Shown piece by piece: positions 5,312-31,179 of a DNA stretch of 32,590 nt. A program made the translations under genes and the position numbers. The DNA lies in IMG/VR virus record IMGVR_UViG_3300020043_001384, positions 1 to 32,590 of that record; one strand, written 5' to 3'. Source of the DNA: a virus. Lineage: Duplodnaviria; Caudoviricetes. Every line of letters begins with the position of its first letter. The first letter of the stretch is position 1. The notes beneath the pieces are model-generated. The model worked only from the letters and a program-made list of their open reading frames with translations, made no database searches and was not told the DNA's origin.

Positions 5312-5826
5312 TAGATAACCATCATTGTATTATCGTAGTTTCCTGAACCTGTGCAATCGTCAACAGGCTTAATGTCTGAGTCCGTGTTTAGGGTGCTTGT
5401 GAACTGAGGGAATAGGTCTTTATTCTCTAGAATGTAGTTAATTAAACGCTTCTCAAAGAATGCAGCCATTTGTCCGTAGTGATCCATAACAAAAGCTACC
5501 TCTCCTTGACTTACATTCTGAGAGTAGTCTCCGAACTGAACTTGTACCCCCTTGTTTTTAAGTTGGTAGGATAAACCGAACGCTGCATTTTCTGCTGCCC
5601 TCCACGCTACTACTGGCTGTATCTTTTCTACTAGCGTCTCCTCGTCATTATTTAAGGTTTGAGCGTTGTACTCAGCTAGTAAATAATTATAAAAGTAACT
5701 ACCTAGAATACTCTGAACTCTCATATCTGAACTAGGTCTGATATAAGGCACAACGTCCTTAACGTCTACGTTAGCAGTTATAGGAGTGTTATTTTTTAGA
5801 TAGGTTTCTGTGACAAAGTATATCAT
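5311..5826 (-). CDS. Putative head-tail adaptor
   Basis: 171 aa helical protein directly after portal. Confidence 0.55.
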   Translation of the reverse strand: MIYFVTETYLKNNTPITANVDVKDVVPYIRPSSDMRVQSILGSYFYNYLLAEYNAQTLNNDEETLVEKIQPVVAWRAAENAAFGLSYQLKNKGVQVQFGDYSQNVSQGEVAFVMDHYGQMAAFFEKRLINYILENKDLFPQFTSTLNTDSDIKPVDDCTGSGNYDNTMMVI

Positions 5827-7142
5827 AGCTGTGGAGTATTTTGAGCCTGTGCCTGTGAATTAGTAACGTCTCCACCTTCGACAGGAGGCAGACCTGCTAA
5901 CTGACGAACCTCGTTAATAGTCATCATTTCAAGAACCTTTGTAGCAACAAGCGGAGACATAGAGTTAAGCGCATCCATTGTAGCAGAACCTTCGTCTTCT
6001 ACTACCGTGATAGTCTCATTGATAATCTGATAGTTAGTAATATCTATCTTCGTGTCAATATCTGCTATCTTTAAAATGCCATTCATTATATCCGTAACCG
6101 ACTCACGAAGTGGAGACACTACATTCTTTTCAAAAATAACATAAGCCTGTTTAATGTCTGAGCCACTACCCAAAGAACCAGTAGTACGAACCCCCAAAAG
6201 GATAGGGTCAATAGTGTGAGCAAAGCATATCTGTTCTGTGATTAGTTCAGAAGTGCTTTTAAATAACTCATCATTTGAATTAGTCGGTACGTTTACCAGT
6301 TCAGGTAGGCTCTCTTTATTGTTAGCGAAGAAAGCCACCGCTTTGCCTGCGTTCTCTGCTCCTTTTAACTTGTTAACCGTATCACGTATTAACTGCATCT
6401 CCTCTTTTCCCTGTGGTTTTTTCGGGAACATCATAGCGAAAGAAGGGAAGATAGAGTTTTGTATTGAGGCCTTCTGCAAATATGACATTTCGCCTGACAA
6501 GAAAGCGAAGTTTAAAGCAGAAGTGTACTGAGGTATTGGATAAATGTCTTGACCTACAGACTCTAGTTCGTAGATGTAAAGGTATTCTCCATCTGTACAA
6601 TTAGGATGGTAAGGAGTTAATGACTTAATGTTACCTGAATACTGCCAATCGTCATTAACAGAGTAGATAGTTTTGTCTTTATTCGTTCGAACCTTTTCAG
6701 CACCTACTCTTTTTATCTTAGTAAGTTGCTTATTCTTTAGAGTCAGTATGAAATAAACTCTTTCGTGCAGGATCAAGTCCTTAGTGATAGCGTTAAGAGT
6801 CTTCTTAATTCCTATCTTCTTTGTGAAAGCGAACAGGTTAACCTTGTCTTTTGCAGTTAGTTTGGTTTCATCAAAAGAATATCCTCCACCTACTACAGCA
6901 TTGGTCTTATAGTTCACTATTGCTCCGTGTAACGGAGAAGAATAGTAAAGCTGATTCCATAACTGAGGTGCTAAGTTGTCCTCACCAAAAGGAACGTAGC
7001 CTCTATTTTGATAACGTGAATCAATGTAAGGTAGCGACAAGTTTCCGCCAGGTACTTTCAAGAATGGAGTAGAGAAAGACTGATAGCCTTCTACTTCTAC
7101 TTGAGGTGCATCCTCTTTTTTAAATTTTCCAAATAAACCCAT
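5823..7142 (-). CDS. Portal protein
   Basis: 439 aa; FGEDN, SPLHGAI, GAENAGK, HTIDPILLG, MTINEVRQLAGLPP motifs of phage portals. Confidence 0.88.
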   Translation of the reverse strand: MGLFGKFKKEDAPQVEVEGYQSFSTPFLKVPGGNLSLPYIDSRYQNRGYVPFGEDNLAPQLWNQLYYSSPLHGAIVNYKTNAVVGGGYSFDETKLTAKDKVNLFAFTKKIGIKKTLNAITKDLILHERVYFILTLKNKQLTKIKRVGAEKVRTNKDKTIYSVNDDWQYSGNIKSLTPYHPNCTDGEYLYIYELESVGQDIYPIPQYTSALNFAFLSGEMSYLQKASIQNSIFPSFAMMFPKKPQGKEEMQLIRDTVNKLKGAENAGKAVAFFANNKESLPELVNVPTNSNDELFKSTSELITEQICFAHTIDPILLGVRTTGSLGSGSDIKQAYVIFEKNVVSPLRESVTDIMNGILKIADIDTKIDITNYQIINETITVVEDEGSATMDALNSMSPLVATKVLEMMTINEVRQLAGLPPVEGGDVTNSQAQAQNTPQL

Positions 7143-7489
7143 TAGTCATATATTGTATTACCATCCCCTTCTACTACCATTCTACCCTCTTCTATTTTAT
7201 TTAGTCCTGTTTCGTCCGTGTTTTCGTCAACTATTATATCTATCGGACTTTCGTAAACTTCATATCTGTATTGACCTTGTCTAAAGTCTACGTCGATAGG
7301 CTCGTTTAAATAAAACAAATTATACCGGTCAGGATATAGAGAATAGTCAGTGCCTACCCAATAAGCAGAAGGTAGGTCTTCGTTATATTCCCACACGAAC
7401 TTAAACAAGAAATAAGGGTTGCTTATCGTTGTGCTTTCTGTCAACGTAAGAGCGAACTCGTTTGTGTTATTCTTGGTAATGTAAATCAT
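7142..7489 (-). CDS. Virion structural protein (head closure/neck candidate)
   Basis: 115 aa beta-rich, GQYRYEVYE...IEEG; first gene after a late promoter. Confidence 0.5.
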   Translation of the reverse strand: MIYITKNNTNEFALTLTESTTISNPYFLFKFVWEYNEDLPSAYWVGTDYSLYPDRYNLFYLNEPIDVDFRQGQYRYEVYESPIDIIVDENTDETGLNKIEEGRMVVEGDGNTIYD

Positions 7490-7495
7490 TTGATT

Positions 7496-7522
7496 TAATT
7501 GTATTAAATAAACGGATTTGTT
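7496..7522 (-). promoter_or_regulatory. Late promoter AACAAA-N13-TACAATTA (copy 1)
   Basis: Same boxes and spacing as 10060-10086 and 18977-19003; immediately downstream of a terminator. Confidence 0.8.
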
Positions 7523-7530
7523 TACTAAAC

Positions 7531-7559
7531 AAAAAAAGGGCAGCCGTTAAGCCACCCTT
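7531..7559 (-). terminator. Rho-independent terminator after tail tube gene
   Basis: AAGGGTGGC-ttaacg-GCTGCCCTT plus T-tract on minus strand (G-U pairs only on minus). Confidence 0.85.
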
Positions 7560-7578
7560 CCCAACCAGGTTAAGTTGA

Positions 7579-8100
7579 TTAAGAGATAGGAGTAGTCAAT
7601 CCTGCGATGATTGCAGAATCAACCTCGTAAGCTAGATGCTCAGACTCAGCAACAAAAGTAACTGAGTATTTAGAACCATCAGCCTTAGCCGTTCCCGAAC
7701 CTTCAGCAACCGCAGAAAGTTGAGCGTTTTCAAAGTACCAATACTTTCCGTTCGCATCTCCTACTACTAGAGCCAAATCTCTTTGGCCTTCGCCAAGGAT
7801 TTTGATAGCCTTAGATTTAGATGCTTCTCTTCTGTGGAACATTAGAGTAATTGTCTGAGTGTAGAACTGCGACCCGTTGATAAAGTCGTTAGCTAGTTCT
7901 TCTGTAAAGTTTCCTGTGTTTCTACGGAACTCAAAAGATACGAACTCATCTACTAACGTACCGAAAGAAGTTACCTCCCAGTTGTTAGTATCTACGGTAA
8001 CCGTACCAAGATTATCCATATCGTTGATAAGGATAGAAGTGATACCGCCCATATTGTTATCGCAGCCTTTGAGGATTGTAGTTAATGTAGTACAAGCCAT
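7579..8100 (-). CDS. Major tail (tube) protein
   Basis: 173 aa; MAC...C...GGI N-terminus, DANGKYW and SGTAKADGSKYSVTF motifs; follows capsid. Confidence 0.7.
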   Translation of the reverse strand: MACTTLTTILKGCDNNMGGITSILINDMDNLGTVTVDTNNWEVTSFGTLVDEFVSFEFRRNTGNFTEELANDFINGSQFYTQTITLMFHRREASKSKAIKILGEGQRDLALVVGDANGKYWYFENAQLSAVAEGSGTAKADGSKYSVTFVAESEHLAYEVDSAIIAGLTTPIS

Positions 8101-8124
8101 TTTTTTTCTGTGTTTAAATGTTAT

Positions 8125-8155
8125 AAAAAAGGGAGGGAAGTAGAACCGCCCTCCC
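8125..8155 (-). terminator. Rho-independent terminator after major capsid gene
   Basis: GGGAGGG/CCCTCCC stem plus T6 on minus strand. Confidence 0.8.
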
Positions 8156-8176
8156 CGCCTTTAATTAGTAGTCAGA

Positions 8177-9103
8177 TTAGGAAGCTACACACGCACCCCA
8201 GAATACAATCTGAGTAGGGTTAGTGATGAAGAATCCAACTTTATAGTCTGCTCTTGCTCCGATAGTACGGTCAAGTGTAGTCTTAGAGAAGTCAACAATC
8301 TGCAAAGAATCGATGTCACCTTCAGCATCCAAAGCGTAGATGAAGTTGTTAGGGTCTGACAACAAGATAGTGTCATTAGGTAGACCATATTCAACATCCA
8401 TAGGAATATCCAAGAACGTCAAGTTCAAAGCTGCTGTAGTGTAGTTGATAGTGTTAGCAGAAGCTGTAGCAATACGGTAAGCAGTAGCTACATTCTGAGA
8501 TACCTTAAAGCGTACAGAAGTTGTAGGAACTTCATTTGGCAACAAAGAAAGAACGTCTCCAAGATCGTCAACAACCGTAGAAGCTGTAACGCTACCACCT
8601 GCTGCACGGATAACTCCGTTCAATCCACAAAGACGCTTTAACCATCCGTCACACTTGTCTAGAAGAGTATCCTCAGAATCTGTGTCACCTTGCCACATCA
8701 ACTTAGCTAGTTCTTCGTGCGCTTTGTTAGCCATCTGCTCGTAGAAGTAAGCCATAAAAGAAGCTACCGTAAAATCAGAGTTAGACCCTTTAGCCATTTG
8801 GTCAGCTAACCAAGTCTGCTCTAGTTGGTACTGACATACTGAAGTTTGAACAGACAACGGACATACGTCGATTTCGATTGCAGAAACCGTAGAATCTGTA
8901 GGAGTGAATGCACAATCAGCAGTTTGAGTAAGCTGAGAGAACAATACGTTTGCAATCTTTGTCTTGTTTTTTACACCTGCAAGAACTCGGTAAGAACCTG
9001 CTGCGTTTTCCATTCCGTAAAGTCTTGCGTAGAACTCTATCGGGTTTGCCTGAAGTAGAGCAGAGCTGTCTACGTTAAGGTCAAATTTGTACTTTTTAGC
9101 CAT
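8177..9103 (-). CDS. Major capsid protein
   Basis: 308 aa after protease/scaffold, WQGD...DGWLK motif, followed by terminator. Confidence 0.85.
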   Translation of the reverse strand: MAKKYKFDLNVDSSALLQANPIEFYARLYGMENAAGSYRVLAGVKNKTKIANVLFSQLTQTADCAFTPTDSTVSAIEIDVCPLSVQTSVCQYQLEQTWLADQMAKGSNSDFTVASFMAYFYEQMANKAHEELAKLMWQGDTDSEDTLLDKCDGWLKRLCGLNGVIRAAGGSVTASTVVDDLGDVLSLLPNEVPTTSVRFKVSQNVATAYRIATASANTINYTTAALNLTFLDIPMDVEYGLPNDTILLSDPNNFIYALDAEGDIDSLQIVDFSKTTLDRTIGARADYKVGFFITNPTQIVFWGACVAS

Positions 9104-10053
9104 TACTTTAAAAAATTAATTACGTTGTTAAACTTTTGTTGAGACGACATTTTCATTTCTACTTCTTCAGCAGGCTCAACCTCTGCTGTTTCAGCTAGTT
9201 CATTCTTTAGGTCAGCTATAACTTGCAAAACCTCAGCTATCTTTTCGTCAATCATAGGAGTAACAATAGCCATAATTGCCTCTGCATCAGCAGCAGGGTC
9301 AACAGCCATTTCTGTAGCGGGAGTCTCTTCAGCCATTGCGACCTCTTCTTCTACTACTACTTCTTCTACAACTTCAGTTTCTACTGGAGTTTCTTCAGCC
9401 ATAGCTACCTCTTCAGCTTCTTTCACTTCGATAACTTCTCCGTCTTTTACGACATAGATTTTACCTTCGATCAGATGCTCTCCGTCAGGTAGTTGCATAT
9501 ATTTGTATTTATGGTTGCTTAGTTTCAGACCTAAAAACCCTTCAATAGAAAATCCAACAGCGTTGTTTTCTACTAGGGAATTATAATAGTCTGTATCGGT
9601 TACCTGTGCTGTAACCATTAATGTACCTTTAGGCACGTCAATACCAAAGGTTGTTTTAGCTTTGTCTGTGTTTGGGTTGTCTACTAGCCAGGCCTCAAGC
9701 AAGTAAGCCGGTACTATCTTCTCTCCTTCGTGTTCAAGATTGAATAAGTCCCTATTATTAAGGTCTTGCATAAAGTCTTTGAAGATCGTGTCAATCTCCT
9801 GCTCTGTAAACTCTACATAGTACTCACCCATCTCATCATCTCTACGATAAATCTCCATAGGAATCATAGCAGGCGCAGTAATACGATACTTTTTATCGTC
9901 TGCGAAAGCTAGTTTTTTCTGAGATGAGAAAGCAACACCCTTAACCATTACGGCAGGGTTCGCAGTAAATGCAATAGCGTCTATCCCGAGTGGCTCTGTG
10001 CCATCGTTATAGTCTTCGTCTATTGTTATTTTGTAGGTTGGAAGTTCCTCCAT
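9103..10053 (-). CDS. Prohead protease (XkdF-like) fused to acidic scaffold
   Basis: PAMIP, NLEH, ESW-like EAW, GFSIEG protease motifs; Glu-rich C-terminal half. Confidence 0.82.
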   Translation of the reverse strand: MEELPTYKITIDEDYNDGTEPLGIDAIAFTANPAVMVKGVAFSSQKKLAFADDKKYRITAPAMIPMEIYRRDDEMGEYYVEFTEQEIDTIFKDFMQDLNNRDLFNLEHEGEKIVPAYLLEAWLVDNPNTDKAKTTFGIDVPKGTLMVTAQVTDTDYYNSLVENNAVGFSIEGFLGLKLSNHKYKYMQLPDGEHLIEGKIYVVKDGEVIEVKEAEEVAMAEETPVETEVVEEVVVEEEVAMAEETPATEMAVDPAADAEAIMAIVTPMIDEKIAEVLQVIADLKNELAETAEVEPAEEVEMKMSSQQKFNNVINFLK

Positions 10054-10059
10054 TTAAAC

Positions 10060-10086
10060 TAATTGTAATTCGTTTAATATTTTGTT
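10060..10086 (-). promoter_or_regulatory. Late promoter AACAAA-N13-TACAATTA (copy 2)
   Basis: Exact motif 6 nt upstream of protease ATG. Confidence 0.8.
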
Positions 10087-10108
10087 AGTTTTTTAACGAA
10101 TATTTTTT

Positions 10109-10116
10109 TATCTTTG
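10109..10116 (+). promoter_or_regulatory. Host-type -7 box TATCTTTG for the plus-strand gene pair
   Basis: Matches TAnnTTTG, 17 nt upstream of ATG 10134. Confidence 0.55.
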
Positions 10117-10133
10117 GGTAAAATTTTATAATT

Positions 10134-10691
10134 ATGGTAAATATTGCAGGGTATGATATACCAAATGAACCGCACGAATTGACCGTTGAGCAGTTCGATA
10201 AGATTAACTTTATCACATCTAACCAGGAACTAGATGAGATAGAAAAGTGGATAGAGAAATTCAAGTACTTAGGAGTAGACGAATCCGTGTTTGATGATAT
10301 GCAAATGGAAGAATTTTACCAACTTATCGCAGACTGGAATGATCAACCGCCACACCCTAAAGACAAAGTGCTTAACATAGAGATAGAAGGCTATACTTAC
10401 GAGGCTAAAGAGTCTATAGGAGTTCGTGACTTAGGAATGATAGAGAAAGTGTGGAAACAGAATAACGGAAACTTCGCAGCTGAGACGTTGGCAATTATCT
10501 ATAAGCGTGCTGACCTTAGTAAAACAGAACACTACGCACCCGCTCACATTAAACATAAAACAGCTTTGTTTAAGAAACAACCTTCATCGCTAGTGATTCC
10601 GTTTATCATCGAAGTACTTGAGAAGCTAACCAAAACAACACAACAGATTAAAGATGCAGTTACCGAAGAACTGGAACAGCCTAACAACTAG
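10134..10691 (+). CDS. Hypothetical protein, possible tail assembly chaperone
   Basis: 185 aa acidic ORF with A-rich start region; IPNEPHELTVEQF resembles N-terminus of next ORF. Confidence 0.6.
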   Translation: MVNIAGYDIPNEPHELTVEQFDKINFITSNQELDEIEKWIEKFKYLGVDESVFDDMQMEEFYQLIADWNDQPPHPKDKVLNIEIEGYTYEAKESIGVRDLGMIEKVWKQNNGNFAAETLAIIYKRADLSKTEHYAPAHIKHKTALFKKQPSSLVIPFIIEVLEKLTKTTQQIKDAVTEELEQPNN

Positions 10692-11382
10692 TCAATTTAT
10701 TGAGTTGAAAGCATTGAAAGAAGAGGACTTTGGTTCTCTTTTTTTATATAACATTGAGGTGCTTAGTATCGTAACAGATACCGACCCCGAAGAACTAGAA
10801 GACCTAGAGCCTGAAGAGTTGGTAGATTACATCTATCAATTAAACTTTCTGAGAAGAGAACCGTCAAAGTCAGCAACCGAAAAGATAAACGATTTACATT
10901 TTAAGCCGTTCATCCTTTTGAAGCTAGGCGAGTTCATAGATTTAGAGTATTATTTCTCTAACGACTTTGTCACAAATTTAACCAATATTTGTGCTTTATG
11001 TTATAGGAAAAAGTCAGTTAATGAATGGGGAGTAGAGACGTTTGAGCCTTATGTTTTTAATCCCTCTGATCGTGCTGACCTATTCGAACACGAAACCATA
11101 ACCAAAACCTACGGAGTAATTCCCGAGTATCTTAAATTCAGAGGTGAGTTAATGCAGTCTTACGAAAATCTATTTATGCCTGACGTTGATGAGTCCGGTG
11201 AAGACCTAGACCCCGAAGACTTGAAAGAAGAACAAGAAGAACAGAGATTTAAAAAGTGGGGTTGGGAAAAGGTTATTTATGACTTGGCAGGCGAAGACAT
11301 AACAAAGGCAGACCAAATAACTGACCTGCCTCTTATAATGGTACTCAACTTTATGAGTATGAAGTATGAGTTAAAAGTTTAA
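10654..11382 (+). CDS. Hypothetical protein, paralog-like of upstream gene, possible tail assembly chaperone
   Basis: 242 aa; LPKNWNSLTTSQF, LGEFIDLE, KWGW..IY.LA motifs. Confidence 0.6.
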   Translation: MQLPKNWNSLTTSQFIELKALKEEDFGSLFLYNIEVLSIVTDTDPEELEDLEPEELVDYIYQLNFLRREPSKSATEKINDLHFKPFILLKLGEFIDLEYYFSNDFVTNLTNICALCYRKKSVNEWGVETFEPYVFNPSDRADLFEHETITKTYGVIPEYLKFRGELMQSYENLFMPDVDESGEDLDPEDLKEEQEEQRFKKWGWEKVIYDLAGEDITKADQITDLPLIMVLNFMSMKYELKV

Positions 11383-11813
11383 AAGTCAAAGAACCCGTTC
11401 CATTTTCCTGACTCATCTCCGTAAAGGTTGTATTTAATATTTACTTTGAGTTTGTCTACTGCAATACGCCCTACGTCAAGGATTGGATAGTTTGCAAGCA
11501 TCCATTCAACATATGCGTCTACGCATTCTTTCTGAAACTGCTGACCAAGTGGAGAAGCTAGTGCATCTTGAGTAATATCGTAAGGGTCAATTATACCACC
11601 ATTCCAAAGGTCTGCACCCTTGTCTAAAAACATATAGTAATAAATAGCGTTTATGGTAACGTATAACTGATTCAAGTCACCTGTAGTAGACGATACACGC
11701 ACAGAGTCTTTTAGTGCATATGTATCTACTAGACCTTTCGCTTGAATCTGCTGTTGAATAGCACGTTGAAGTTTTGCCCTTGTCTTATATCCTACTTTAA
11801 ATTGCTTTGCCAT
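11379..11813 (-). CDS. Putative neck/tail completion protein (HK97 gp10-like)
   Basis: GLVDTYALKDSV and YYMFLDKG motifs resemble the TG.L..SI / Y..F.E.G pattern. Confidence 0.5.
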   Translation of the reverse strand: MAKQFKVGYKTRAKLQRAIQQQIQAKGLVDTYALKDSVRVSSTTGDLNQLYVTINAIYYYMFLDKGADLWNGGIIDPYDITQDALASPLGQQFQKECVDAYVEWMLANYPILDVGRIAVDKLKVNIKYNLYGDESGKWNGFFDF

Positions 11814-11822
11814 ATGTTAAAA

Positions 11823-12128
11823 TTACAAAATAATACTAGCTGAATAACCCATCTCTATGAATCTATCTTTAGTATAGTTCAAAGCTACTAACAAAGATTG
11901 CTCTTCAGTAGCTAAGATAGTAAAGCTAAACTCCATAGAATGAATCGATGTATGTACGCAGTCATTAGTTAAAAAGTGAGCGTGGTCTAAATACGTCTTG
12001 TAATTAACTGATATGGTCAAGCCGTCAGGATGTGCAACGAATTCAATGCGTGCATAAACAGAATCGAGTTCAATATCCGTTCCGTGTACTTTTATCAGTT
12101 CCGTGTTTGGTTGTAGTAGTATTCCCAT
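11823..12128 (-). CDS. Hypothetical protein, possible tail fibre chaperone
   Basis: 101 aa ORF coupled to tail fibre stop. Confidence 0.5.
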   Translation of the reverse strand: MGILLQPNTELIKVHGTDIELDSVYARIEFVAHPDGLTISVNYKTYLDHAHFLTNDCVHTSIHSMEFSFTILATEEQSLLVALNYTKDRFIEMGYSASIIL

Positions 12129-13510
12129 TAATTAATTCTTTTATATCTTAATATTGAACCCTTATTTGTTCGTGATGTTCGCCCTGCTGCTGCCGATACA
12201 TTACAAAACTGATATTTAAAGGTGGCATTTGCCGTACACGAAAAAGCAAATTGAAAACGAGGTGAATGTAAGTAATCAAAGTTTGCTGAGTTCACTCCGA
12301 ATACAAAACCACTTGAAGCAGCCGAAGCCGACACCAAAATTAAAACGGTTTGAATTGCACCTGCAGCACTCATTCCGACATATTGACCTTGTCCCTGCAT
12401 TGTTCCCCCATTTAATTGAAATCTACTTTGATAATCTCCCGTTGTGTTATTTCCAGAATAACAAAGGTCTAATTCAACCATATAATAACCTCCTGCAACA
12501 ACGGAAAATTGAAGTTCTGTATCATCTTGAAAAACCACACTATTCGTCACATCTTGATTTGCACTCTTTACAATAGTAGTCCATCCTGCTGGATCGGTTG
12601 CCGTTGGTGTTGCCCAAGTGTTATCCCCTCGCAGAAAGGTTGTCGCTGAAGGTGTACCCGTTGCACTTAATTCAGTTAGTCCGATAGTTGCAGCATCGAT
12701 ATTCCAAACCGTTCCCGAACTTGAAACGGTTATGTCTCCTTTGTCTCCGTCAGTTAGTCCTATTGGTGCATTCGTGTTTTGCCACAGACCACTAGTATTG
12801 TTATACGTTAATATCTGACCATTGGTAGGTGAAGTAATTACAACGCCTTCGTCTTTGTTTATGTTACTGCCTATAGTAGGTCTTACTTGAATAATACCAT
12901 TTGCAGCAGCGTGAATAACAATAGCTACTAGTACAATGTTATTAGGCGCAGAAGGTACGGTTGTAGTGAAGCCACCTGCTACCGTAGTAGAAGCGTAAAG
13001 AATATCTCCATCTACATAAGCTGAAGTGTTTACGTTCTTGATCTGTCCGAAGTGCATAACCATTCCGTCCGCTCCATTAAGGATAGCCTCAGATGTTACA
13101 CCCATAACATACTCTGAATCAAAAGTACCATTAGCTAAAAAAGGCGTTATAAGAATCCTGCCACTAGAGCCTAACGTACCATTAGCACGAACTACCGTTC
13201 CTTTAGGTATAGTTACCCCTGTTTGATTTTTAGCTATGTAGAATACGTCCTCCATTATTCTACCCGTAGTACCATTCATTACTAGCTGTGCAGTATTGTG
13301 GTCTACGTCCCAAGATATAGTACCTTGAGTTGTAGGTGTTCCCGTTGGTGTAGTGTCTAATCCTATGAAGCCACCGCTTAGACCATACTCACCTAAGTCT
13401 ACGTTTCCTGTTGCACCCGTATAAGGTACACCTCCACCTCCCGTGATAGTTAAATCTCCAGTCCCCTTTATGGACTGCCCGTTAATTGTCTTTAATGGTG
13501 TATAACTCAT
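12128..13510 (-). CDS. Tail fibre / receptor-binding protein
   Basis: Gly/Thr-rich; KTINGQSIKGTGDL, PYTGATGNVDLG, DGDKGDITVS, TTFLRGDNTW fibre modules. Confidence 0.8.
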   Translation of the reverse strand: MSYTPLKTINGQSIKGTGDLTITGGGGVPYTGATGNVDLGEYGLSGGFIGLDTTPTGTPTTQGTISWDVDHNTAQLVMNGTTGRIMEDVFYIAKNQTGVTIPKGTVVRANGTLGSSGRILITPFLANGTFDSEYVMGVTSEAILNGADGMVMHFGQIKNVNTSAYVDGDILYASTTVAGGFTTTVPSAPNNIVLVAIVIHAAANGIIQVRPTIGSNINKDEGVVITSPTNGQILTYNNTSGLWQNTNAPIGLTDGDKGDITVSSSGTVWNIDAATIGLTELSATGTPSATTFLRGDNTWATPTATDPAGWTTIVKSANQDVTNSVVFQDDTELQFSVVAGGYYMVELDLCYSGNNTTGDYQSRFQLNGGTMQGQGQYVGMSAAGAIQTVLILVSASAASSGFVFGVNSANFDYLHSPRFQFAFSCTANATFKYQFCNVSAAAGRTSRTNKGSILRYKRIN

Positions 13511-13511
13511 A

Positions 13512-22515: not shown

Positions 22516-22531
22516 CTGTTAAAATTTTAAC

Positions 22532-22539: not shown

Positions 22540-22550
22540 CAAATTTTTCG

Positions 22551-23725: not shown

Positions 23726-24351
23726 CTGCTTATAAGTGGGGTTTTCTTTCGCTCTTCTCCGTGCATTGTGCTTTCGTGGTCTCCGTGTTTTGCTAGGCTC
23801 TTAATCGGTAAGTACATTTTTACTCCGTTCCTGTTGAATTTAAAGGTTAATTGCTGACCTACTCCGCTTGAAATGTCACGATACTTAAATCGTTTTGGGT
23901 TTACTGGGTCTATAGTGAACTCTATCCGTTCAAGTGCTTCACGATTGCAGAAGAAACCGCAATCTGTAAAGTAAACCTTTCTGACGTATTGATCGACAGG
24001 TTCAGAGGGCTTCTGAATCCAACACCACTCCCGTCCATCGTTGATTATATTGCAGAGATACGGCTTGTTTTTGTATTTCTTGTGTAGCTTCTTAACCAGG
24101 TCAAGGTCTAAATCAAGAAAGTCATTAGGCATAAACAGAAAAAAGTCATCGTCTGAGGCTTTAGCTAGTTCGAACGCTACAAACCACTTTCTCCAAAACT
24201 CTTTCTTGCCTCCGTTCTTGAACTTAATCACATTAGTGTAGTCTATAAAATAAGAAGACCCGTCGTCTAGGACAACGGGGTTCAAATGCTTTAGATGGTT
24301 TAACACCTCCTTGAACATATCTTCTCTTTCGTAGTTAAATATGAAGGTCAT
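23722..24351 (-). CDS. GT-A fold glycosyltransferase
   Basis: VLDDGS, FMPNDF, DCGF, SSGVG, SLAKHG motifs. Confidence 0.7.
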   Translation of the reverse strand: MTFIFNYEREDMFKEVLNHLKHLNPVVLDDGSSYFIDYTNVIKFKNGGKKEFWRKWFVAFELAKASDDDFFLFMPNDFLDLDLDLVKKLHKKYKNKPYLCNIINDGREWCWIQKPSEPVDQYVRKVYFTDCGFFCNREALERIEFTIDPVNPKRFKYRDISSGVGQQLTFKFNRNGVKMYLPIKSLAKHGDHESTMHGEERKKTPLISR

Positions 24352-24443
24352 TCATTTGGATTTAAGCGTTCAAAGTTACAACCTCTATAAGCCCAACTTA
24401 GCAGCCAGTCTTTAGCCTTGAATCGACGTAGGACTGACCGCAT
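24348..24443 (-). CDS. Possible 31-aa ORF (not in ORF track)
   Basis: MRSVLRRFKAKDWLLSWAYRGCNFERLNPNE; stop overlaps next start as ATGA. Confidence 0.35.
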   Translation of the reverse strand: MRSVLRRFKAKDWLLSWAYRGCNFERLNPNE

Positions 24444-24465
24444 ATCTGTTGGTTTGTGCCGTGTT

Positions 24466-24732
24466 TTAGAATGGTAGGTCATTCTCAACTTTTTCAGGTT
24501 TAGCTTCAGGCTTCTCAACGAACTCAGCTTTAACGATCTTTCCGTCAGTCCAAGTAACCTTGCCGTTACCTACATAGACCTTCTTCGCTTTTGCTTCTCG
24601 CTCTTCTTTAGTCTGTGCAATCCATACAGAGGTATTGTTACCCCAGTCGTCTTGCTTGTCGTTAATACTCATTGTGTACTTATCGTACCCACCTTGTGCA
24701 TTCTTGATACTAAAATTGATTAGTGAACTCAT
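24466..24732 (-). CDS. Putative single-stranded DNA-binding protein
   Basis: 88 aa, D.WGN, QTKEERE, YVGNGK, acidic NDLPF tail; in recombination module. Confidence 0.7.
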   Translation of the reverse strand: MSSLINFSIKNAQGGYDKYTMSINDKQDDWGNNTSVWIAQTKEEREAKAKKVYVGNGKVTWTDGKIVKAEFVEKPEAKPEKVENDLPF

Positions 24733-25427
24733 AATTTTGATTTTAATTCGTTATAATACTCTCTACAAATATACACTTTTTCCTTGATTTTTTCTATTAT
24801 TGCTTCGTCTTTTTCTATCAAGAAAGCCTTTACTCTGTTCTTCTTTTCGATGCGGTCAATGTTATGTACAGCTAAAACTTCTTCCCAAGCGTAAGACTCC
24901 TTTTCTAAAGAATCCATATCAGTGAACTGAGGGTCTGTATCTAGTTTCCAAATTAACCTCCTGACTTCGTCGTTTAGAATCACGTCAGGTGTATTGGTCA
25001 AACAATAAGCAAGGATAGCGTTATCGACTCCAGTTAACCACATATAGCCTTGCAGTTGATAAAGGTAGTCCTTGTTTGGGATCTCGCTTTGAAAAAACGG
25101 AAACGTATTCGCAGAGTAACTTGACTTCACATCTAACACAAACTTTGAAGTAACTACATCCGGTGTTCCTTTGATAAATTCGTTTTCGAAATATTCTTCG
25201 TTCTTAACTATAAACTCAAGGTCTAATACATCGGCTGCAAGTTGAATAGATTCATCTTCTACCATATTCCCTTTATCTGTGTACCGGGATGTAAAGTCCT
25301 TTCTTATTCCGTAAACATCTTCAAGTACTAACTCTTCAATGTAACTCTTAGCAGTCTGTGAAAGAACCTCGCTTTTTGAACGAGGCTCTGTTAAGATTTT
25401 TCCTAATGCTGAACATCTTATCTTCAT
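24729..25427 (-). CDS. YqaJ/lambda-exo-like exonuclease
   Basis: IRCS, GTPD, DVKSS (PD-D/ExK), YQLQGYMWL. Confidence 0.85.
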   Translation of the reverse strand: MKIRCSALGKILTEPRSKSEVLSQTAKSYIEELVLEDVYGIRKDFTSRYTDKGNMVEDESIQLAADVLDLEFIVKNEEYFENEFIKGTPDVVTSKFVLDVKSSYSANTFPFFQSEIPNKDYLYQLQGYMWLTGVDNAILAYCLTNTPDVILNDEVRRLIWKLDTDPQFTDMDSLEKESYAWEEVLAVHNIDRIEKKNRVKAFLIEKDEAIIEKIKEKVYICREYYNELKSKL

Positions 25428-25978
25428 AGTAAAGCAATTACTGATTTCTGTACTTCTGTTAATTCATATCCTTGTAAAGCCTTCTTGAAAGCCTCAGCAG
25501 TTAGTTCTCCTTTCTCTATCTTGGCAAGACCGTTTTCGAATCTGTCTTGAGGGAAAGATGGCTTCGTGTTTTTGACAGCTACTGAAGCTGTCTGTGCATC
25601 GTCATCTTCGGTCTGAAGACATAGTAAAGACTGAAGCGTGTAACGTCTGTAGTAAGTGATAGCTGAACCGATCTTCTGAGGGTCTTGGATAGCAGGTAAC
25701 TGCATTGAACTGGAGATGCTTTCTCCTGACTCCGCATCCATAATAACCGTAGATACATAGCCGTCAACGATAGGTTGCATCATTAAGAGCCCGTGTTCAA
25801 GTAGGATAGGCTCAACTTCCTTCGTCAGAGCGTTAATGTCTGCGTAGTTGTTTTTAAAGTGTGGGTTCTTTGCGTTCTTAGATACCGCACCGATCTGTTG
25901 CTTTGCTCTCCATAGTTTAAACCATAGGGTCTGAGGCTTTGGAATAGCGTCTTCGAATGAATTTTCTTGCTTTTTCAT
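25424..25978 (-). CDS. erf: ERF-family ssDNA annealing protein
   Basis: KNPHFKNNYA, GSAITYYRRY, EDDDA signature. Confidence 0.9.
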   Translation of the reverse strand: MKKQENSFEDAIPKPQTLWFKLWRAKQQIGAVSKNAKNPHFKNNYADINALTKEVEPILLEHGLLMMQPIVDGYVSTVIMDAESGESISSSMQLPAIQDPQKIGSAITYYRRYTLQSLLCLQTEDDDAQTASVAVKNTKPSFPQDRFENGLAKIEKGELTAEAFKKALQGYELTEVQKSVIALL

Positions 25979-26002
25979 AGTTAATTATTTTAATTGTTTA
26001 AG

Positions 26003-26033
26003 CGAATTTAAGTAATGTTTTTTAATTGGCAAA
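26003..26033 (-). promoter_or_regulatory. Host-type promoter TTTG-N19-TAAATTCG for recombination operon
   Basis: Consensus spacing; shares AATTTTGCCA -33 context with early promoters. Confidence 0.65.
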
Positions 26034-26414
26034 ATTTAATTCGTGTTTTCGTATTTTTTCTTTCAAAGCCTCAAGTAGTTCCTCCTTTTCGTAGGTAGTC
26101 CACTTCTTTGTTGAGTTGGCTTTTATACGTAGTTCATCCATAAATACTTCGCCATATTCTTTAACTAGCCAAAAGGTAAACTCAGTCGGTGTTTTATGTG
26201 CTGAAAAAGACGAACTAAAAGTGTGATGCGCCACACATAAACAAACACCATTACTTTCATCCCATCGAACTGATTTATTTGATCTACTAAATATATGATG
26301 GCTGTTTAGTGTTTTGGTAGTTCCGCACACTTCGCATTTATTCCCTGCTTCTAGTTTTACTAATAACGACCAAGCATCGTCTAGTTTTCCGTCTATTCCT
26401 TTTAGTTTTTTCAT
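26022..26414 (-). CDS. NinG/HNH-like endonuclease
   Basis: CEVCG, HHIFSR, RWD..N..CLC..HH. Confidence 0.8.
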   Translation of the reverse strand: MKKLKGIDGKLDDAWSLLVKLEAGNKCEVCGTTKTLNSHHIFSRSNKSVRWDESNGVCLCVAHHTFSSSFSAHKTPTEFTFWLVKEYGEVFMDELRIKANSTKKWTTYEKEELLEALKEKIRKHELNFAN

Positions 26415-27079
26415 ATCTCGAAATCAAATATAGATGTTTGTCGTTCGTCTTTCTTTCGTATTATACCTAAAGCTGTTTCAAAGATAGTTCTTCCAGCTTC
26501 ATAGTCTACTAGGTTGCGACACATTTTAACCCTATCTTGTTCGCCATTATATTTAGTAAAATCATAATCATGAAACTCTGAAAAAACTTTTACCTTATTC
26601 TTTGCCCTACTCAAATCAGGATTCTTTCTTTCACTAACAACAGTAGGTAAAATAAAGTTTGCCCAGTATAAATGTCTGTTTCTTTGTTGTGCAGGAATTA
26701 ATGGTTCATAATATGGAATTACATTTTCGATAACATATTTCCCCGTATAAAAGGTGTTAAGAAATATAATCTCTTGATACAATTTCATGTCAGGATAAGC
26801 CATTTTTCTAGTTGTTTTCATAGAGTGTTGTATCCTTGAATGTGTTGGACAAGGTGGTGAACTCCAAATAAAATCAAACTCTTTATAATGGTCAAGTAAG
26901 TATTGATGCGCATCTGCAACGATTACAATATCGTTCGGAAACCTTTCTTGGTATAATCTCGCAGCTTCAGGGTCTAATTCAACTGCGGTTACTTCAATTT
27001 CAATTCCTGCTTGTTCTGCTACTTCGTCCCATTTGTAGCGGTTACCTCCTAGACAGGCGTATAAGTTTAATACTTTCAT
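26411..27079 (-). CDS. C5-cytosine DNA methyltransferase (short, orphan)
   Basis: LNLYACLGG (motif I), SSPPC (IV), ENV (VI), R.RH (VIII), RNLV (X). Confidence 0.85.
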   Translation of the reverse strand: MKVLNLYACLGGNRYKWDEVAEQAGIEIEVTAVELDPEAARLYQERFPNDIVIVADAHQYLLDHYKEFDFIWSSPPCPTHSRIQHSMKTTRKMAYPDMKLYQEIIFLNTFYTGKYVIENVIPYYEPLIPAQQRNRHLYWANFILPTVVSERKNPDLSRAKNKVKVFSEFHDYDFTKYNGEQDRVKMCRNLVDYEAGRTIFETALGIIRKKDERQTSIFDFEI

Positions 27080-27282
27080 TCTTCCGTGTTTTTAATTAAT
27101 TCAACTTCTTCTAAATATGTGGGTACATAATCGTACTTTTCAGTCTTAAGAAATGGAGAACCATCTCTATCATCGAAGCCTTGCACCTCGTAAACACCAC
27201 CTACATACAATCCTAAGTGTTCATTATTTGATTTGTTCAATCCTTGATGTTTTACAAATCTTACTTTGTCTCCTGTCTTCAT
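27076..27282 (-). CDS. Hypothetical SH3/KOW-like small protein
   Basis: MKTGDKVRF...EVEL pattern; ATGA overlaps. Confidence 0.6.
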   Translation of the reverse strand: MKTGDKVRFVKHQGLNKSNNEHLGLYVGGVYEVQGFDDRDGSPFLKTEKYDYVPTYLEEVELIKNTEE

Positions 27283-27527
27283 TCTAACATCTTTTTATAT
27301 TCATTCAACTCTAAATTTTCTTCGTGCATCTTCCACAATTTACGCATTAATTCTTCATTTTCTGCTTTTAGTTCTTTTAAAGTCTCCTTGACTTGGTCTA
27401 GATCGCAGACTATCTGTTTTAATCCGTCTTTTTGTTGTTCGCTTTCACTCTTCTTTAACCGGAATAACATCTTATTTGCTGTTAAGTCAAGGTTGATTAG
27501 TGAGGTTGTGTATCTTGTTAAGTCCAT
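27279..27527 (-). CDS. Hypothetical coiled-coil protein
   Basis: 82 aa heptad-rich, follows helicase. Confidence 0.6.
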   Translation of the reverse strand: MDLTRYTTSLINLDLTANKMLFRLKKSESEQQKDGLKQIVCDLDQVKETLKELKAENEELMRKLWKMHEENLELNEYKKMLE

Positions 27528-27535
27528 AAAGTTAA

Positions 27536-28531
27536 TTAAAAAGGTAATCCATCGTCAAAATTATTATTAGGTTCTAGTGGTTTGTAAAACTCCTGCAATT
27601 CATTCGGTAGAATATTCCGTGTTTTCATCTCTCCTTTCGGTGCTGCATAAAGTTTATTATGTTGGTTTGGTGCAACTACATCAATGTCGTAATAGGTCAA
27701 AGTGTTTATATCGAAGTGTAGTTCACATTTTCCTATTTTACCAATCGAACGGGGCTTTATTTTGTTGAAGTGGATCTCTACCATATTGTGCATTACGTCA
27801 GGTCGATGAATAGTAATCATTGATTTTCCACTATTAAACCACTCCGAACCACCTTTTAAATCGTAAGGTGTAGGAACAGACCTTTGACCGTTTACTTTCT
27901 CTGTCAGTTTAGGGTGTATGATCGTGTGAAGATGTAGATTATTCTCCTCTGCTATATGGTTTCTATAAGGCAAACAATATTCCAAGTAAGTTGCATAACC
28001 TCCGTAAGTGTCGTAAGGATGGCTCAAGTCTTTCCAGCTATCAATCGAAGCTGTGTGAAGTCCTTCCGTCTTTTTGATGTGTGCTGCCATATCCCAAAAA
28101 TCCATTGGAGTCATCTTCGCTTTAACATCTACCTTAGTAAGCACCTTGAAATGTTTTGTAACCCATTCAATCTCCTTTTCAATATCTGCATCTGTGATCG
28201 TGTTAGGTTTTTTAGGGTCGAAAGATTTGCTCGTCTTCTTATGGATAAAGTCTGCAAGTATCTCAACATTGTTACCAACGTCAGGAAAGTAAATTAAGTG
28301 CTTCCATCCGTATAATACAGAAGTATTCATTAACAACTCCATCAACACTTGAGTCTTACCACTCATTGGAAATCCTGTCCAATCCGTACAACCTCCTAAC
28401 TGCATAGAATAATACTCATCTATCTTTTCAAATCCAAGATAAACCCCTCTTTCGTGGTAGTTATCCCTATACTCTTTTAGTTGTTTAAGAACGTCGCTAG
28501 GCTCCGTTACTTTAAATCCATTTAATCCCAC
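27536..28531 (-). CDS. DnaB/T7 gp4-like SF4 replicative helicase
   Basis: TGFPMSGKT Walker A, SIDSW, HP.K, YDLKGGS, KIKP..IG.IG. Confidence 0.8.
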   Translation of the reverse strand: MGLNGFKVTEPSDVLKQLKEYRDNYHERGVYLGFEKIDEYYSMQLGGCTDWTGFPMSGKTQVLMELLMNTSVLYGWKHLIYFPDVGNNVEILADFIHKKTSKSFDPKKPNTITDADIEKEIEWVTKHFKVLTKVDVKAKMTPMDFWDMAAHIKKTEGLHTASIDSWKDLSHPYDTYGGYATYLEYCLPYRNHIAEENNLHLHTIIHPKLTEKVNGQRSVPTPYDLKGGSEWFNSGKSMITIHRPDVMHNMVEIHFNKIKPRSIGKIGKCELHFDINTLTYYDIDVVAPNQHNKLYAAPKGEMKTRNILPNELQEFYKPLEPNNNFDDGLPF

Positions 28532-29253
28532 GGTGCTTTATATTTAGTCGGTTCATCTACTTGGTTTAAATATCTCTGAAAATTATCATTAGGTAAGAAG
28601 TGAGATGGTGCTATCATCTTGTTATCTAGTACCCATTGATTCTTACACATCATCTTGAATGCGTGTTCCCATTCGTGTGAGTGATATTTAAGTTTCTTAA
28701 GTTTCTTCAAATTATTCTTATCTGTATCTGATATAACCTTGAACTTACCTTCTATACCATTGTATTTAAGTTTCATTTGATTAAACCAAGTTAAGAAGCC
28801 ATCCACATCAATTTTCTCATCCTTTTTAGTATTAGAATCTTCTTCTTGTTCTTCTTCTTCTTCTTTTTCTTCTTGCGATAGAGTATCCATACTGTATATA
28901 TACTCTATCAATACTCTATTTTTCACTAGTTTAAGTTCTGATTCTATGCACTTTACAACTTTTGGGCTTGTAGAGTAGTTATATTTAGCCCAGTTCTTTA
29001 TTGCTATCTCATTTGTAGACTCAGAGAATCGAATTTTACCGAGTGAGGTGAAGTGTGATATTAGTTTATTCACCTTGTCTGAACTTATGTTTAAATCAAA
29101 AGCAATATGCTTCTTGCTTATCTCATAAATACCACATTGTTTAGTTCGTTCGTTTGTAAGTAGGTATAGATAAAACATCTTCTTATCACTATCCAATTCA
29201 CTAAAGAACGGATCAGACCAAATCTGTGTATGTACTTTTCTAAAAACTGCCAT
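28522..29253 (-). CDS. Replication initiator (wHTH, DnaD/replisome organiser-like)
   Basis: WSDPFF.EL, YLYLLTN, CGIYEI, NW.KYN N-terminus; acidic linker; F..YLNQ C-terminus; upstream of helicase. Confidence 0.8.
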   Translation of the reverse strand: MAVFRKVHTQIWSDPFFSELDSDKKMFYLYLLTNERTKQCGIYEISKKHIAFDLNISSDKVNKLISHFTSLGKIRFSESTNEIAIKNWAKYNYSTSPKVVKCIESELKLVKNRVLIEYIYSMDTLSQEEKEEEEEQEEDSNTKKDEKIDVDGFLTWFNQMKLKYNGIEGKFKVISDTDKNNLKKLKKLKYHSHEWEHAFKMMCKNQWVLDNKMIAPSHFLPNDNFQRYLNQVDEPTKYKAPWD

Positions 29254-29254
29254 A

Positions 29255-29461
29255 TCAATCCATTTGTGAGATTTGTTTCCTCAATTCCTTTGAAAACTTG
29301 ATAGCAGTAGATTTATCAAGAACAATAAACGCTTTTGGATAACCAAGACCTTCCTCAATGATAATTGATAATTCACCTCCAGCATTGTGAAAACACTCTA
29401 TCGTGTTTCCATCTGTTTCTGATTCTACACTTCCGCAGAACAATAATTTGACACTTGCCAT
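29255..29461 (-). CDS. Hypothetical protein
   Basis: 68 aa, LDKSTAIKFSKELR motif; between structured RNA and initiator. Confidence 0.65.
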   Translation of the reverse strand: MASVKLLFCGSVESETDGNTIECFHNAGGELSIIIEEGLGYPKAFIVLDKSTAIKFSKELRKQISQMD

Positions 29462-29502
29462 AACTTTATAAGCGTTTTAGGTCAACACATAACCTTTAAA
29501 TG

Positions 29503-29592
29503 AAAAACCCCATCTATCCACAAGGCTCCGACCTCTTGCTTCAAGACAGGGTTAATATAAATTCCTGTGGTTCTATTATGTCGGAGCGAACC
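29503..29592 (-). ncRNA. Structured RNA: two hairpins with complementary loops (kissing loop), terminator-like 3' end
   Basis: P1 GGUUC/GAACC with loop GCUCCGAC; P2 AACCCUGUCU/AGAUGGGGUU with inner CAAG/CUUG and loop GUCGGAGC; U-tract; TATATTTG box at 29599-29606. Confidence 0.7.
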
Positions 29593-29615
29593 TATACACA
29601 AATATAACGAGAATA

Positions 29616-29852
29616 TCAAGCCTTTCGTTGCATCTGTTCTGTTAATTTTCTGTTAAAAAACGAAGTAACGCTATCTAGTTTCGAATCGTTCCAGTCTTCG
29701 TCAAAGCTGATTAGTTGCATATCGTTGTACGGTGTTTTATGTTCCTGCTTCCACGCTTTTAGTTTCTCTGCTTTCTCTTGTTCGTCTTTATAACCTAGCT
29801 GAGAAGAGCAGTATCTTCCGTTGATAGTGAATACTATTTTAATCCATTTCAT
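29616..29852 (-). CDS. Hypothetical protein
   Basis: 78 aa, ATGA overlap. Confidence 0.6.
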   Translation of the reverse strand: MKWIKIVFTINGRYCSSQLGYKDEQEKAEKLKAWKQEHKTPYNDMQLISFDEDWNDSKLDSVTSFFNRKLTEQMQRKA

Positions 29853-30208
29853 TCGTTCGTGTTTTTGTCGTAAATGTTTCCTTTTATTTCAATTAACTCT
29901 TCAATGTAGTTCAAAGGATCATCACATTCGTTATCATTCCAAGCTGTAAACTCTCTCCACTCATACTTAACATCTGATTCAATATGGTTAACTTTAACAA
30001 TATCGCCCTCAAAAATTCTTGAACCTTCATTGTCAAACAACCCTGTGAACTGACCTATCGTATTACTATCAACATCGAACTGATTTCCTTTCCAATCAAC
30101 TATTAAGATTATTTGTGGTTTGTCTGGTACGAAGTATCTTAATAAACTACCTTCAACCCAATTACCATTATCAACTCTTTTTGCTCTAAATAAAATATCT
30201 CTTTTCAT
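29849..30208 (-). CDS. YopX-family protein
   Basis: ILFRAK, WVEG, GQFTGL.D..G..IFEGDIV, GNIYD. Confidence 0.9.
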   Translation of the reverse strand: MKRDILFRAKRVDNGNWVEGSLLRYFVPDKPQIILIVDWKGNQFDVDSNTIGQFTGLFDNEGSRIFEGDIVKVNHIESDVKYEWREFTAWNDNECDDPLNYIEELIEIKGNIYDKNTNE

Positions 30209-30435
30209 TGTAACGCTTTTATCAGGTTCTTAATTCTTTCTATTGTTACTTCTCCTTTGAGTTCGATAGATGCTGTGTAACCGGATTCATAAATTTCTAG
30301 TGCTACCATCTTTCCGTAGTCTGAAAATATTACATTCAAGGCACAGTTGTCTAGTTCATAAAGCCACTGCTCTGCATCGTGGTACTTGTCATCCAGTACA
30401 AATCCTAGTTCTGAAATTTCTTTTGTTGTTATCAT
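30205..30435 (-). CDS. Hypothetical protein
   Basis: 76 aa, ELGF motif, overlapping neighbours. Confidence 0.6.
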   Translation of the reverse strand: MITTKEISELGFVLDDKYHDAEQWLYELDNCALNVIFSDYGKMVALEIYESGYTASIELKGEVTIERIKNLIKALQ

Positions 30436-30800
30436 AGTTTTTCTGTAAGTTTAAAATCAATTAATCTCCTTAAATATACTTCTCCGTCTTTCACATCTTT
30501 TCCAACCGTCTTTGGATAGAGTCCGTCATTTATCCACCGCATCCAATTTTCAAACACTCTGCTATCTACATCGTTGTTTTCTCGCTTCAGAAAGTGAATA
30601 ATAGTGTCGTGCCTTTCCTTGTTTCCGTAAATAATCTTTGCAATCTCCTGAATTGTTAGACCGCTTTCTTTTAAGTAGTGACAAGCACACACCTTCATAT
30701 CAACATAGAACCTGCCTCTGTATTTCTTTTTAAAGTAGTTCTTCATCATATCACTGGTTGGTAAAAGCGTTCTGTTTATATATGCCTCAATCTCTGTCAT
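30432..30800 (-). CDS. HTH protein resembling DnaA C-terminal DNA-binding domain
   Basis: GLTIQEIAKII...RHDTIIH resembles DnaA domain IV signature (RDHTTV.H). Confidence 0.55.
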   Translation of the reverse strand: MTEIEAYINRTLLPTSDMMKNYFKKKYRGRFYVDMKVCACHYLKESGLTIQEIAKIIYGNKERHDTIIHFLKRENNDVDSRVFENWMRWINDGLYPKTVGKDVKDGEVYLRRLIDFKLTEKL

Positions 30801-31179
30801 ATTCTTGTTTTAATCGTTCAATGTAAAGTGTGGCATCCATCAACTCTTCCTGTAAGTGTGTAAGCCATTGTAAGGTGTTTAAATCGTTTCGTTCTAGCGT
30901 TGTGTTGTACTTCTCTATTCCTGCTTCTGATCGTTGTTTAAATCGGCTTAAAACGCTTTCGACTATTGAGTCCGTGTTTTCGTTGACTTGCTCTGTAAGT
31001 ATTTCAAGTTGGCAAGTAGGAATTATCCAAGTAAGCCCTATGTCATCAGTGATCTGAAAACTACCATCTCGCTCGTCTGATATTATAGTTCCCTCTAAAC
31101 AAAACATTGACGGGAAAAATGTAAGCCCGCGAACAACACCGCTCCACGGAACAACTTTTACTCTAGTTCCTTTTCTCAT
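30787..31179 (-). CDS. SH3-like N-terminus fused to MazG-like/all-alpha NTP-PPase-like domain
   Basis: RS..GI.KY.TTL, WL.HLQEELMDA.LY motif. Confidence 0.55.
   Translation of the reverse strand: MRKGTRVKVVPWSGVVRGLTFFPSMFCLEGTIISDERDGSFQITDDIGLTWIIPTCQLEILTEQVNENTDSIVESVLSRFKQRSEAGIEKYNTTLERNDLNTLQWLTHLQEELMDATLYIERLKQEYDRD

Follow-up and report, generated by a model that had tools for sequence, protein, structure and literature searches.

We describe a short word, AAA(C/G)ACG(R), that is over-represented in the genome of an uncultured aquatic tailed phage (IMG/VR record IMGVR_UViG_3300020043_001384, positions 1 to 32,590; the whole 32.6-kb contig is referred to as the window) and in many of its relatives. 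The word is selected, with an excess of about threefold beyond what protein coding needs. It acts on DNA and prefers one strand of the genome, though not absolutely. As a tentative reading, the phages' own lambda-type exonuclease may recognize the word as a pause or stop signal for Exo-Erf recombination, and the main rival is that the word is the Chi of the host AddAB. The working we propose is Chi-like by inference, and the word is not a demonstrated Chi.

A selected word in the window and its relatives

Nearly every gene of the window lies on the minus strand, and the coding-strand word AAACACG stands on the plus strand as CGTGTTT, with 24 copies there and none on the minus strand. The first-pass annotation had listed 23 of these positions, all rightly, and had noticed no AAACACG on the plus strand, which the count confirms. 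The 24th copy, at 21540, is preceded by A, whereas the other 23 have the C or T that had been described as invariable. Permuting synonymous codons genome-wide (1,000 permutations) gives an expectation of 7.2±2.3 with a maximum of 15, and CGTGTTT is the top-ranked 7-mer; a stricter null, in which codons are additionally sorted by the base that follows them, gives 9.4, with a maximum of 17 in 200 shuffles. The proposed over-representation therefore survives both nulls, although the base-composition expectation of 2-4 was too low. The 24:0 asymmetry, earlier taken as a signal, is no evidence by itself in the window, because under the same codon null the opposite strand should hold just 0.7 copies, and none at all appear there in 49% of shuffles.

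The sibling CGTCTTT is also enriched, with 17 copies against about 6 expected. The copy at 84 is a contig-end copy of that at 2383 and was excluded from the site list. Five further copies lie on the other strand, where 1.1 are expected under the plain codon null and 2.3 under the stricter null. Together, the full word AAA(C/G)ACG has 40 genuine forward sites and 5 reverse sites in the window (Table 1). The motif YCGTGTTT, as first proposed, thus had a real core but was incomplete, and reverse copies of the word occur. The gap reported between 12.8 and 18.9 kb is largely a matter of coding potential: the region 12.85-18.95 kb holds 1 full-word site against 1.9 expected.

AAACACG (187 vs 60 expected) and AAAGACG (256 vs 108) lead the 7-mer ranking in a dereplicated set of 39 IMG/VR relatives (525 kb). 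Nearly all single-base neighbours stay at about 1-2x, and the excess grows when a purine follows the word or an A precedes it. The true word on the coding strand is AAA(C/G)ACG(R). An observed-to-expected ratio (O/E) of at least 2 at P<0.001 is reached by 21 of 40 related, near-complete genomes. These were hand-picked from capsid, terminase, exonuclease and helicase scans, and 21 of 40 should therefore not be read as a prevalence. The 40 genomes represent 18 lineages, of which 11 lie at 2.2-4.9x; G181, which is partial and apparently rearranged, is kept outside this count. Five motif-rich genomes belong to a second virion family, with capsids 28-30% and large terminase subunits (TerL) 31-33% identical. 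In rich genomes, 40-60 sites per 30 kb are spaced about 0.5-0.8 kb apart, with no regularity beyond random (mean z -0.15, 23 genomes).

The word bends codon choice in every reading frame. Across 16 rich genomes, the dipeptide N-T is coded AAC ACG in 46% of cases after A and in 13% after other bases, and K-T is coded AAG ACG in 37% and 11%; K-H is coded AAA CAC in 73% of cases before G and in 32% otherwise, and K-D is coded AAA GAC in 70% and 52%. A high-GC clade shows neither of the A-dependent shifts (N-T and K-T). Since unlike base changes converge on one word, we disfavour mutational bias; the C and G forms also replace one another at orthologous free positions. The earlier argument that codon bias is insufficient holds, as the excess survives both nulls and the word appears in all three frames and in intergenic DNA. 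At amino-acid-identical sites, the word is retained in 94%, 81% and 89% of cases, against 60-74%, 23-59% and 62% for controls. The proposed check of synonymous-site conservation thus gave a high value, but to us this adds no independent proof of selection, because any word whose equilibrium frequency is high would be expected to be well retained.

Action on DNA and strand preference

Fully intergenic sites in 23 genomes number 67 against 5.2 expected in the forward orientation and 6 against 3.0 in reverse, some sites being shared by related genomes; with 15 representatives the figures are 41 vs 3.6 and 5 vs 1.9. Inverted genes separate the orientation of the DNA from that of the gene. In 58 dereplicated inverted genes, the C form keeps the genome orientation 8 times against 1.4 expected, and follows the sense direction 3 times against 2.4. 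These genes are mostly orthologues of a conserved cassette, and the 8 sites represent about 6-7 distinct positions; read-through antisense transcription may be an alternative explanation. The observation that site 10286 keeps its orientation inside a plus-strand gene therefore extends to inverted genes of relatives, and the relatives support the idea of a polar, DNA-level signal.

The polarity differs among genomes. In G163-G165, the C variant is strictly one-stranded (21-26 forward, 0 reverse), whereas one genome set is enriched on the reverse strand too (C variant 47 vs 9.8, G variant 35 vs 8.0). Under the stricter null, applied to 12 genomes, a clear antisense-strand excess is seen just in G155 (18/4.2) and G166 (10/3.9). 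The coding strand, on which the word lies, has more G than C (fourfold skew +0.18). Among the 15 representatives, the half-genome downstream of the helicase gene has a forward O/E of 3.65 and the upstream part one of 2.64 (P 5e-5), and the reverse O/E is 2.40 downstream and 3.63 upstream (P 0.053), the flip point having been scanned over 12 positions.

The O/E is also higher around and upstream of the terminase genes. We rejected a role in left-end protection at pac, as reverse sites are lowest just downstream of TerL. In related contigs, joints between gene cassettes lie near motif sites (window 25576, 27074-27278, 29846-30203 and 30967); this link is confounded, because those positions are also gene boundaries.

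Candidate readers of the word

The window encodes a portal, capsid, tape measure, PBSX/P22-like terminases, initiator, DnaB-type helicase, NinG, Erf and a lambda-type exonuclease (Table 1). Judging from its terminases, the phage probably packages DNA by a headful mechanism, and we assume that replication starts in or near the initiator gene. A Bacteroidota host is predicted from the few Shine-Dalgarno-like words (2.3% of 731 gene starts in the window and relatives), the A-rich starts and the helicase, whose best cultured matches are Flavobacterium and Riemerella phages. Both ends of the contig are likely assembly chimeras: window 1-117 is an exact inverted copy of 2356-2472 (endolysin), and 32497-32590 of 1017-1110 (exonuclease gene). 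Segments 156-241 and 32397-32487 are 78% alike.

Table 1. Sites of the word and related genes in the window
Feature	Coordinates	Strand	Positions or matches
AAACACG, 24 copies (CGTGTTT on +)	5383..30979	-	5383, 7217, 10286, 12102, 12773, 18992, 19306, 20571, 21112, 21443, 21540, 21886, 22754, 22934, 23395, 23784, 24460, 25565, 26042, 27085, 27618, 29402, 29858, 30973
Sibling AAAGACG, 16 copies (CGTCTTT on +)	2145..31305	-	2145, 4579, 9441, 12850, 16483, 20724, 20977, 22196, 24806, 26446, 27425, 28067, 29783, 30485, 30507, 31299
Reverse-orientation AAAGACG, 5 copies	2383..26212	+	2383, 2652, 8629, 17245, 26206
Lambda-exonuclease-fold (YqaJ-like) exonuclease, 232 aa; candidate reader	24729..25427	-	PHROG 5715 E 2.6e-62; PDB 3k93 E 2.3e-29
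Erf-family single-stranded DNA annealing protein	25424..25978	-	PF04404 E 1.6e-23
NinG/Rap-like junction endonuclease	26022..26414	-	PHROG 5034 E 3.4e-15
DnaB-type (superfamily 4) helicase	27536..28531	-	PHROG 5482, 18375, 19; 47% to Flavobacterium phage FCL-2
Replication initiator	28522..29253	-	PHROG 6251 E 6.8e-40
Inverted two-gene cassette holding site 10286; internal test of DNA vs gene orientation	10134..11382	+	
DnaA-domain-IV-like helix-turn-helix protein	30432..30800	-	Atlas cluster at 0.91, PF08299 on 13% of members
Sigma-like regulator	21577..22107	-	PHROG 351 E 3.2e-5
Terminase, PBSX/P22-like (large 19003-20154, small 20126-20554)	19003..20554	-	PF04466, PF16677
C5 DNA methyltransferase	26411..27079	-	PF00145

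The structure model of the exonuclease (pLDDT 87.8) has the lambda Exo fold, with Foldseek matches to 3k93, LHK-Exo and lambda Exo, and a 5'-3' exonuclease activity is predicted from it. The word goes with the presence of this enzyme. All 14 of the 18 lineages that carry the core exonuclease subfamily have an O/E of 1.7-4.9, whereas the remaining 4, in which it is missing or divergent, lie at 0.9-1.4. Among these motif-poor phages, G170 and G528 have no exonuclease, G529/G534 have a divergent one (40% to that of the window), and the high-GC clade has one of 31-32% together with its own BT4734-like/PriCT primase. The helicase behaves otherwise: those of motif-poor G170, G528 and G529 are 58-66% identical to that of the window, and that of motif-rich G155 is 29%. 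The G160 group, which forms a well-supported exonuclease branch of its own, has a polar top word of its own, CGCACGA, sharing the CACGA core. In this group (G160-G162 and loci L620-L645), it occurs 44 times against 2.6 forward and 3 against 1.3 in reverse, and its sites represent 11 distinct contexts across 9 related sequences. ACACCGA is also high in the same genomes and loci (40 vs 7.8).

We prefer the exonuclease as the reader because the word tracks this enzyme, because the rule seen in Chi-rich lambdoid phages is reversed here, and because pausing of lambda Exo at GGCGA offers a precedent. In this mechanism, the 5'-to-3' exonuclease would chew the end of the genome or a broken fork and stall at AAA(C/G)ACG(R), leaving a bounded 3' tail that Erf could anneal. 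The terminally redundant genome would thereby be circularised, or replication restarted, and the genome spared from resection; the working would be Chi-like with a phage-encoded reader. We speculate, with some reserve, that widespread aquatic Bacteroidota phages have co-evolved a genome-wide polar word with their own lambda-type exonuclease, a phage-private Chi that passes from AAA(C/G)ACGR to CGCACGA as the enzyme diverges.

Several points weigh against the exonuclease. A shared host or a shared gene pool predicts much the same covariation, only 4 lineages are negative, the line between core and divergent exonucleases was drawn after the data were seen, and the exonuclease tree is a quick version. 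G160-162 (1.8x), G169 (1.7x) and G533 (2.1x) carry the core exonuclease yet show weak enrichment, and the exonuclease of Nonlabens phage P12024L falls inside the motif-rich clade, on a long branch, while its genome has 7 words against 8 expected, which is no enrichment. Comparing 59 genome pairs revealed neither a consistent asymmetry of identity flanking conserved sites nor a clear pile-up at the ends of identical tracts. The model matches 3k93 over its full length, without an extra DNA-reading domain. A fork-linked reader would account at least equally well for the orientation gradient, which turns near the replication genes. Moreover, the known lambda pause, as far as the consulted part of PMC7496540 describes it, is a stochastic slow-down and not a selected genome-wide word.

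Other proteins of the phage were rejected as readers. The DnaA-domain-IV-like protein, which the first-pass annotation had suggested, does not follow the word: its family occurs in motif-rich and motif-poor phages alike (38 of 41 genomes) and is missing from motif-rich G525. Its recognition helices vary, and the same KDHAT helix occurs in the motif-rich G163 group and in motif-poor G529/G534. Just 3 of 31 genomes carry the C5 methylase, and each of the two glycosyltransferase-like genes is likewise found in 3 of 31 (region 22551-24351 holds a GT2 glycosyltransferase, an FkbM methyltransferase and a third glycosyltransferase-like gene), and the sigma-like factor, TerL and the small terminase subunit all occur in the motif-poor clade too. 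A packaging signal, also suggested earlier, is unlikely, as genomes with a TerL just 31-33% identical are no poorer in the word, which is absent from a clade with a TerL 78-80% identical. We notice a late-promoter-like element, AAC(C/A)A..N~15..TA(C/T)TTA or TATAG, conserved upstream of structural genes at a distance of a few bases from the start codon (for example window 7490-7560 and its orthologues in G155-G184), with clade-specific variants. It is probably read by the sigma-like protein. The word is not this promoter; the two are separate elements, and the word fills the promoter spacer in just some orthologues.

The main rival to the phage exonuclease holds that the word is the Chi of the host AddAB helicase-nuclease, and that the phages gather it to stop degradation of their ends and to trigger host recombination, as LLS and P1 do with the RecBCD Chi. 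We consider this conceivable, if rather doubtful. The length of the word, its single degenerate position and its density are all Chi-like, it lies on the G-over-C strand, its occurrence in two virion families is what a shared host predicts, and the gradients at the helicase gene agree with it. Five screened genomes have no RecC match and carry AddA/AddB-sized PDDEXK proteins. Known Chi words, however, are mostly G-rich. We counted AAASACGR in 1,377 distinct Bacteroidota genomes, reached via a Chitinophagaceae metagenome-assembled genome (MAG), the phylum, five orders and two families. None comes near the density of the window (1,166/Mb forward), the peak read from the tables being about 150 sites/Mb/strand, although the host itself is not identified among them and such a screen would miss an enrichment under about 2x. 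Nineteen outlier genomes, sampled at 15-420 kb (with 60 kb from the last of the orders), have an O/E of 0.7-1.8, highest on the 15-kb samples, and the 9 checked show no consistent context-dependent codon shift. In addition, exonuclease-bearing phages are rich and G170/G528 poor, the reverse of the lambdoid rule given in the excerpted text of PMC12315714. The host Chi-like site of the first-pass annotation is thus lowered in probability but not removed: no screened genome is enriched, yet the host may lie outside the screened set, and even a proven Chi may be only weakly over-represented in its own host (PMC8022716, from the portion consulted).

Direct links to a host were sparse. The capsid protein has no match in INPHARED, the four matching genome contigs are MAG contigs of mixed taxa, and the long L155 and the Chitinophagaceae contig L154 are without the word. 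Homologues and protein clusters pointed to no organism. The word is also not enriched in five INPHARED phages, of which four are cultured Bacteroidota phages and one is a spring-water record. Plus-only matches on long contigs proved to be a listing artefact, as a control pattern behaves alike, and a double ratio against the reversed pattern was too noisy to use. A different word, TCCGCCA/TGGCGGA, stands out in the complete 2.59-Mb genome G056 (420 kb sampled), at about 4-5x expectation on each strand (51 vs 10, 56 vs 14), and may be a host repeat or a Chi-like word.

A site for lagging-strand priming or helicase loading, with the host DnaG recruited by the phage DnaB-type helicase, is unlikely in our judgement. 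No primase family was matched among the window proteins in PHROG and Pfam, and the first-pass annotation had raised this option. It fits the absence of enrichment in the clade with its own BT4734-like/PriCT primase (48/46.3) and in two cultured phages with their own primase, the turn of the gradient near the initiator-helicase genes, and the Okazaki-sized spacing. However, three motif-poor lineages (G170, G528 and G529/G534) and phage FCL-2 share the helicase family, have no recognised primase and show little or no enrichment. Furthermore, the spacing is random, motif-rich genomes freely exchange their helicase and initiator types, and DnaG primases read trinucleotides. In the clade of G157-G159, G177, G179, G180 and G182-G184, a 799-aa BT4734-like/PriCT-1 primase-helicase replaces the DnaB-type helicase, and TTGGTTG is rich on both strands (47 vs 11, 64 vs 24), although the codon null fits this clade poorly; we take this word to resemble the site of the NrS-1 primase-polymerase.

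It is similarly improbable that the word is a binding or modification site of an unidentified host or phage protein, such as a nucleoid protein, an orphan methyltransferase or a defence self-mark. The enrichment on both strands in some clades would suit such a protein, the non-palindromic shape resembles type IIG/III or BREX motifs, and G529/G534 carry a different two-strand word, CCTGGATC. On the other side, helix-turn-helix, sigma-like, methylase and glycosyltransferase genes do not track the word, intergenic sites are polar (67:6), and restriction-type motifs are normally purged, as GATC, GGCC, CCGG and CTAG are in the window's family, where they are depleted. The word CCTGGATC itself reaches 22 vs 0.6 and 20 vs 3.2 on the two strands of G529, G534 and L617.

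That the word marks single-strand nicks or packaging sites of virion DNA, such as phages tf or T5 have, is very unlikely: the strictly one-stranded C variant of genomes such as G163-G165 recalls the 14 one-strand nick sites of tf (PMC3517423, as far as seen), but rich genomes have 40-60 sites per 30 kb, other clades use both strands, and the word does not follow terminase or capsid type. Least credible of all is that the word arises from bias in codons, codon pairs or mutation, or that it is an RNA or promoter element. In favour, much raw strand asymmetry follows gene direction, the O/E is 7-8 within 36 nt of start codons against 2.5-3 elsewhere, and under the stricter null the expectations rise and most of the reverse excess disappears outside two clades. 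Against it, the excess survives both nulls, the word occurs in all three frames and in intergenic DNA (67 forward sites vs 5.2 expected), it is absent in related clades, and late promoters are a separate element.

Significance and comparison with known systems

The word is a defined, selected signal common to many uncultured phages. If the phage exonuclease reads it, these phages would have a Red-like recombinase with its own Chi and a sequence-controlled Exo-annealase recombination, with consequences for recombineering tools and for the question of how resection is held in check while headful phages circularise. If the host AddAB reads it, the word would be a Chi for Bacteroidota, for which our literature search found no paper giving one, and could serve as a host fingerprint for these phages. 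The same search met the literal words only in unrelated papers and found nothing on AAA(C/G)ACG, subscription papers and supplements lying mostly outside it.

Like the nick consensus of tf, T5 and phiKMV, as the consulted text of PMC3517423 presents it, the word is repeated on one strand of a phage genome. The sites here are more numerous and shorter, lie on both strands in some clades, and are known from sequence alone.

KOPS, the sites that orient FtsK, are directed by replication and sit in free and synonymous positions, as the word does. Bacterial Chi likewise has its orientation tied to replication direction and occupies such positions (PMC8022716, in part). Unlike both, the word is not over-represented in the sampled chromosomes, and none of the 53 window proteins matches an FtsK-type family in PHROG and Pfam.

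Lambda Exo, whose fold the model of the window exonuclease shares, pauses strand-specifically at GGCGA(TTCT), which slows 5'-to-3' resection near the genome end; the accessible text of PMC7496540 describes this sequence as a motif of the left cos site and not as a selected genome-wide word. Pausing by the window enzyme is our proposal.

The layout of the word resembles that of the Chi of phages LLS, MD8 and P1, which, on the part of PMC12315714 we consulted, is also a short, non-palindromic top word, mostly on one strand, exceeding codon usage, and denser around and upstream of the terminase genes. Chi-rich lambdoid phages mostly lack a Rec module according to the same partial source, whereas exonuclease, Erf and NinG are all encoded in the window. 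The word here occurs in phages with an Exo-Erf module and is absent from two without an exonuclease, and no screened host is enriched in it. It is also A-rich, unrelated in sequence to that Chi, and about 2-3 times denser, at 1 per 0.5-0.8 kb against 1 per 1.9 kb (PMC12315714, same part).

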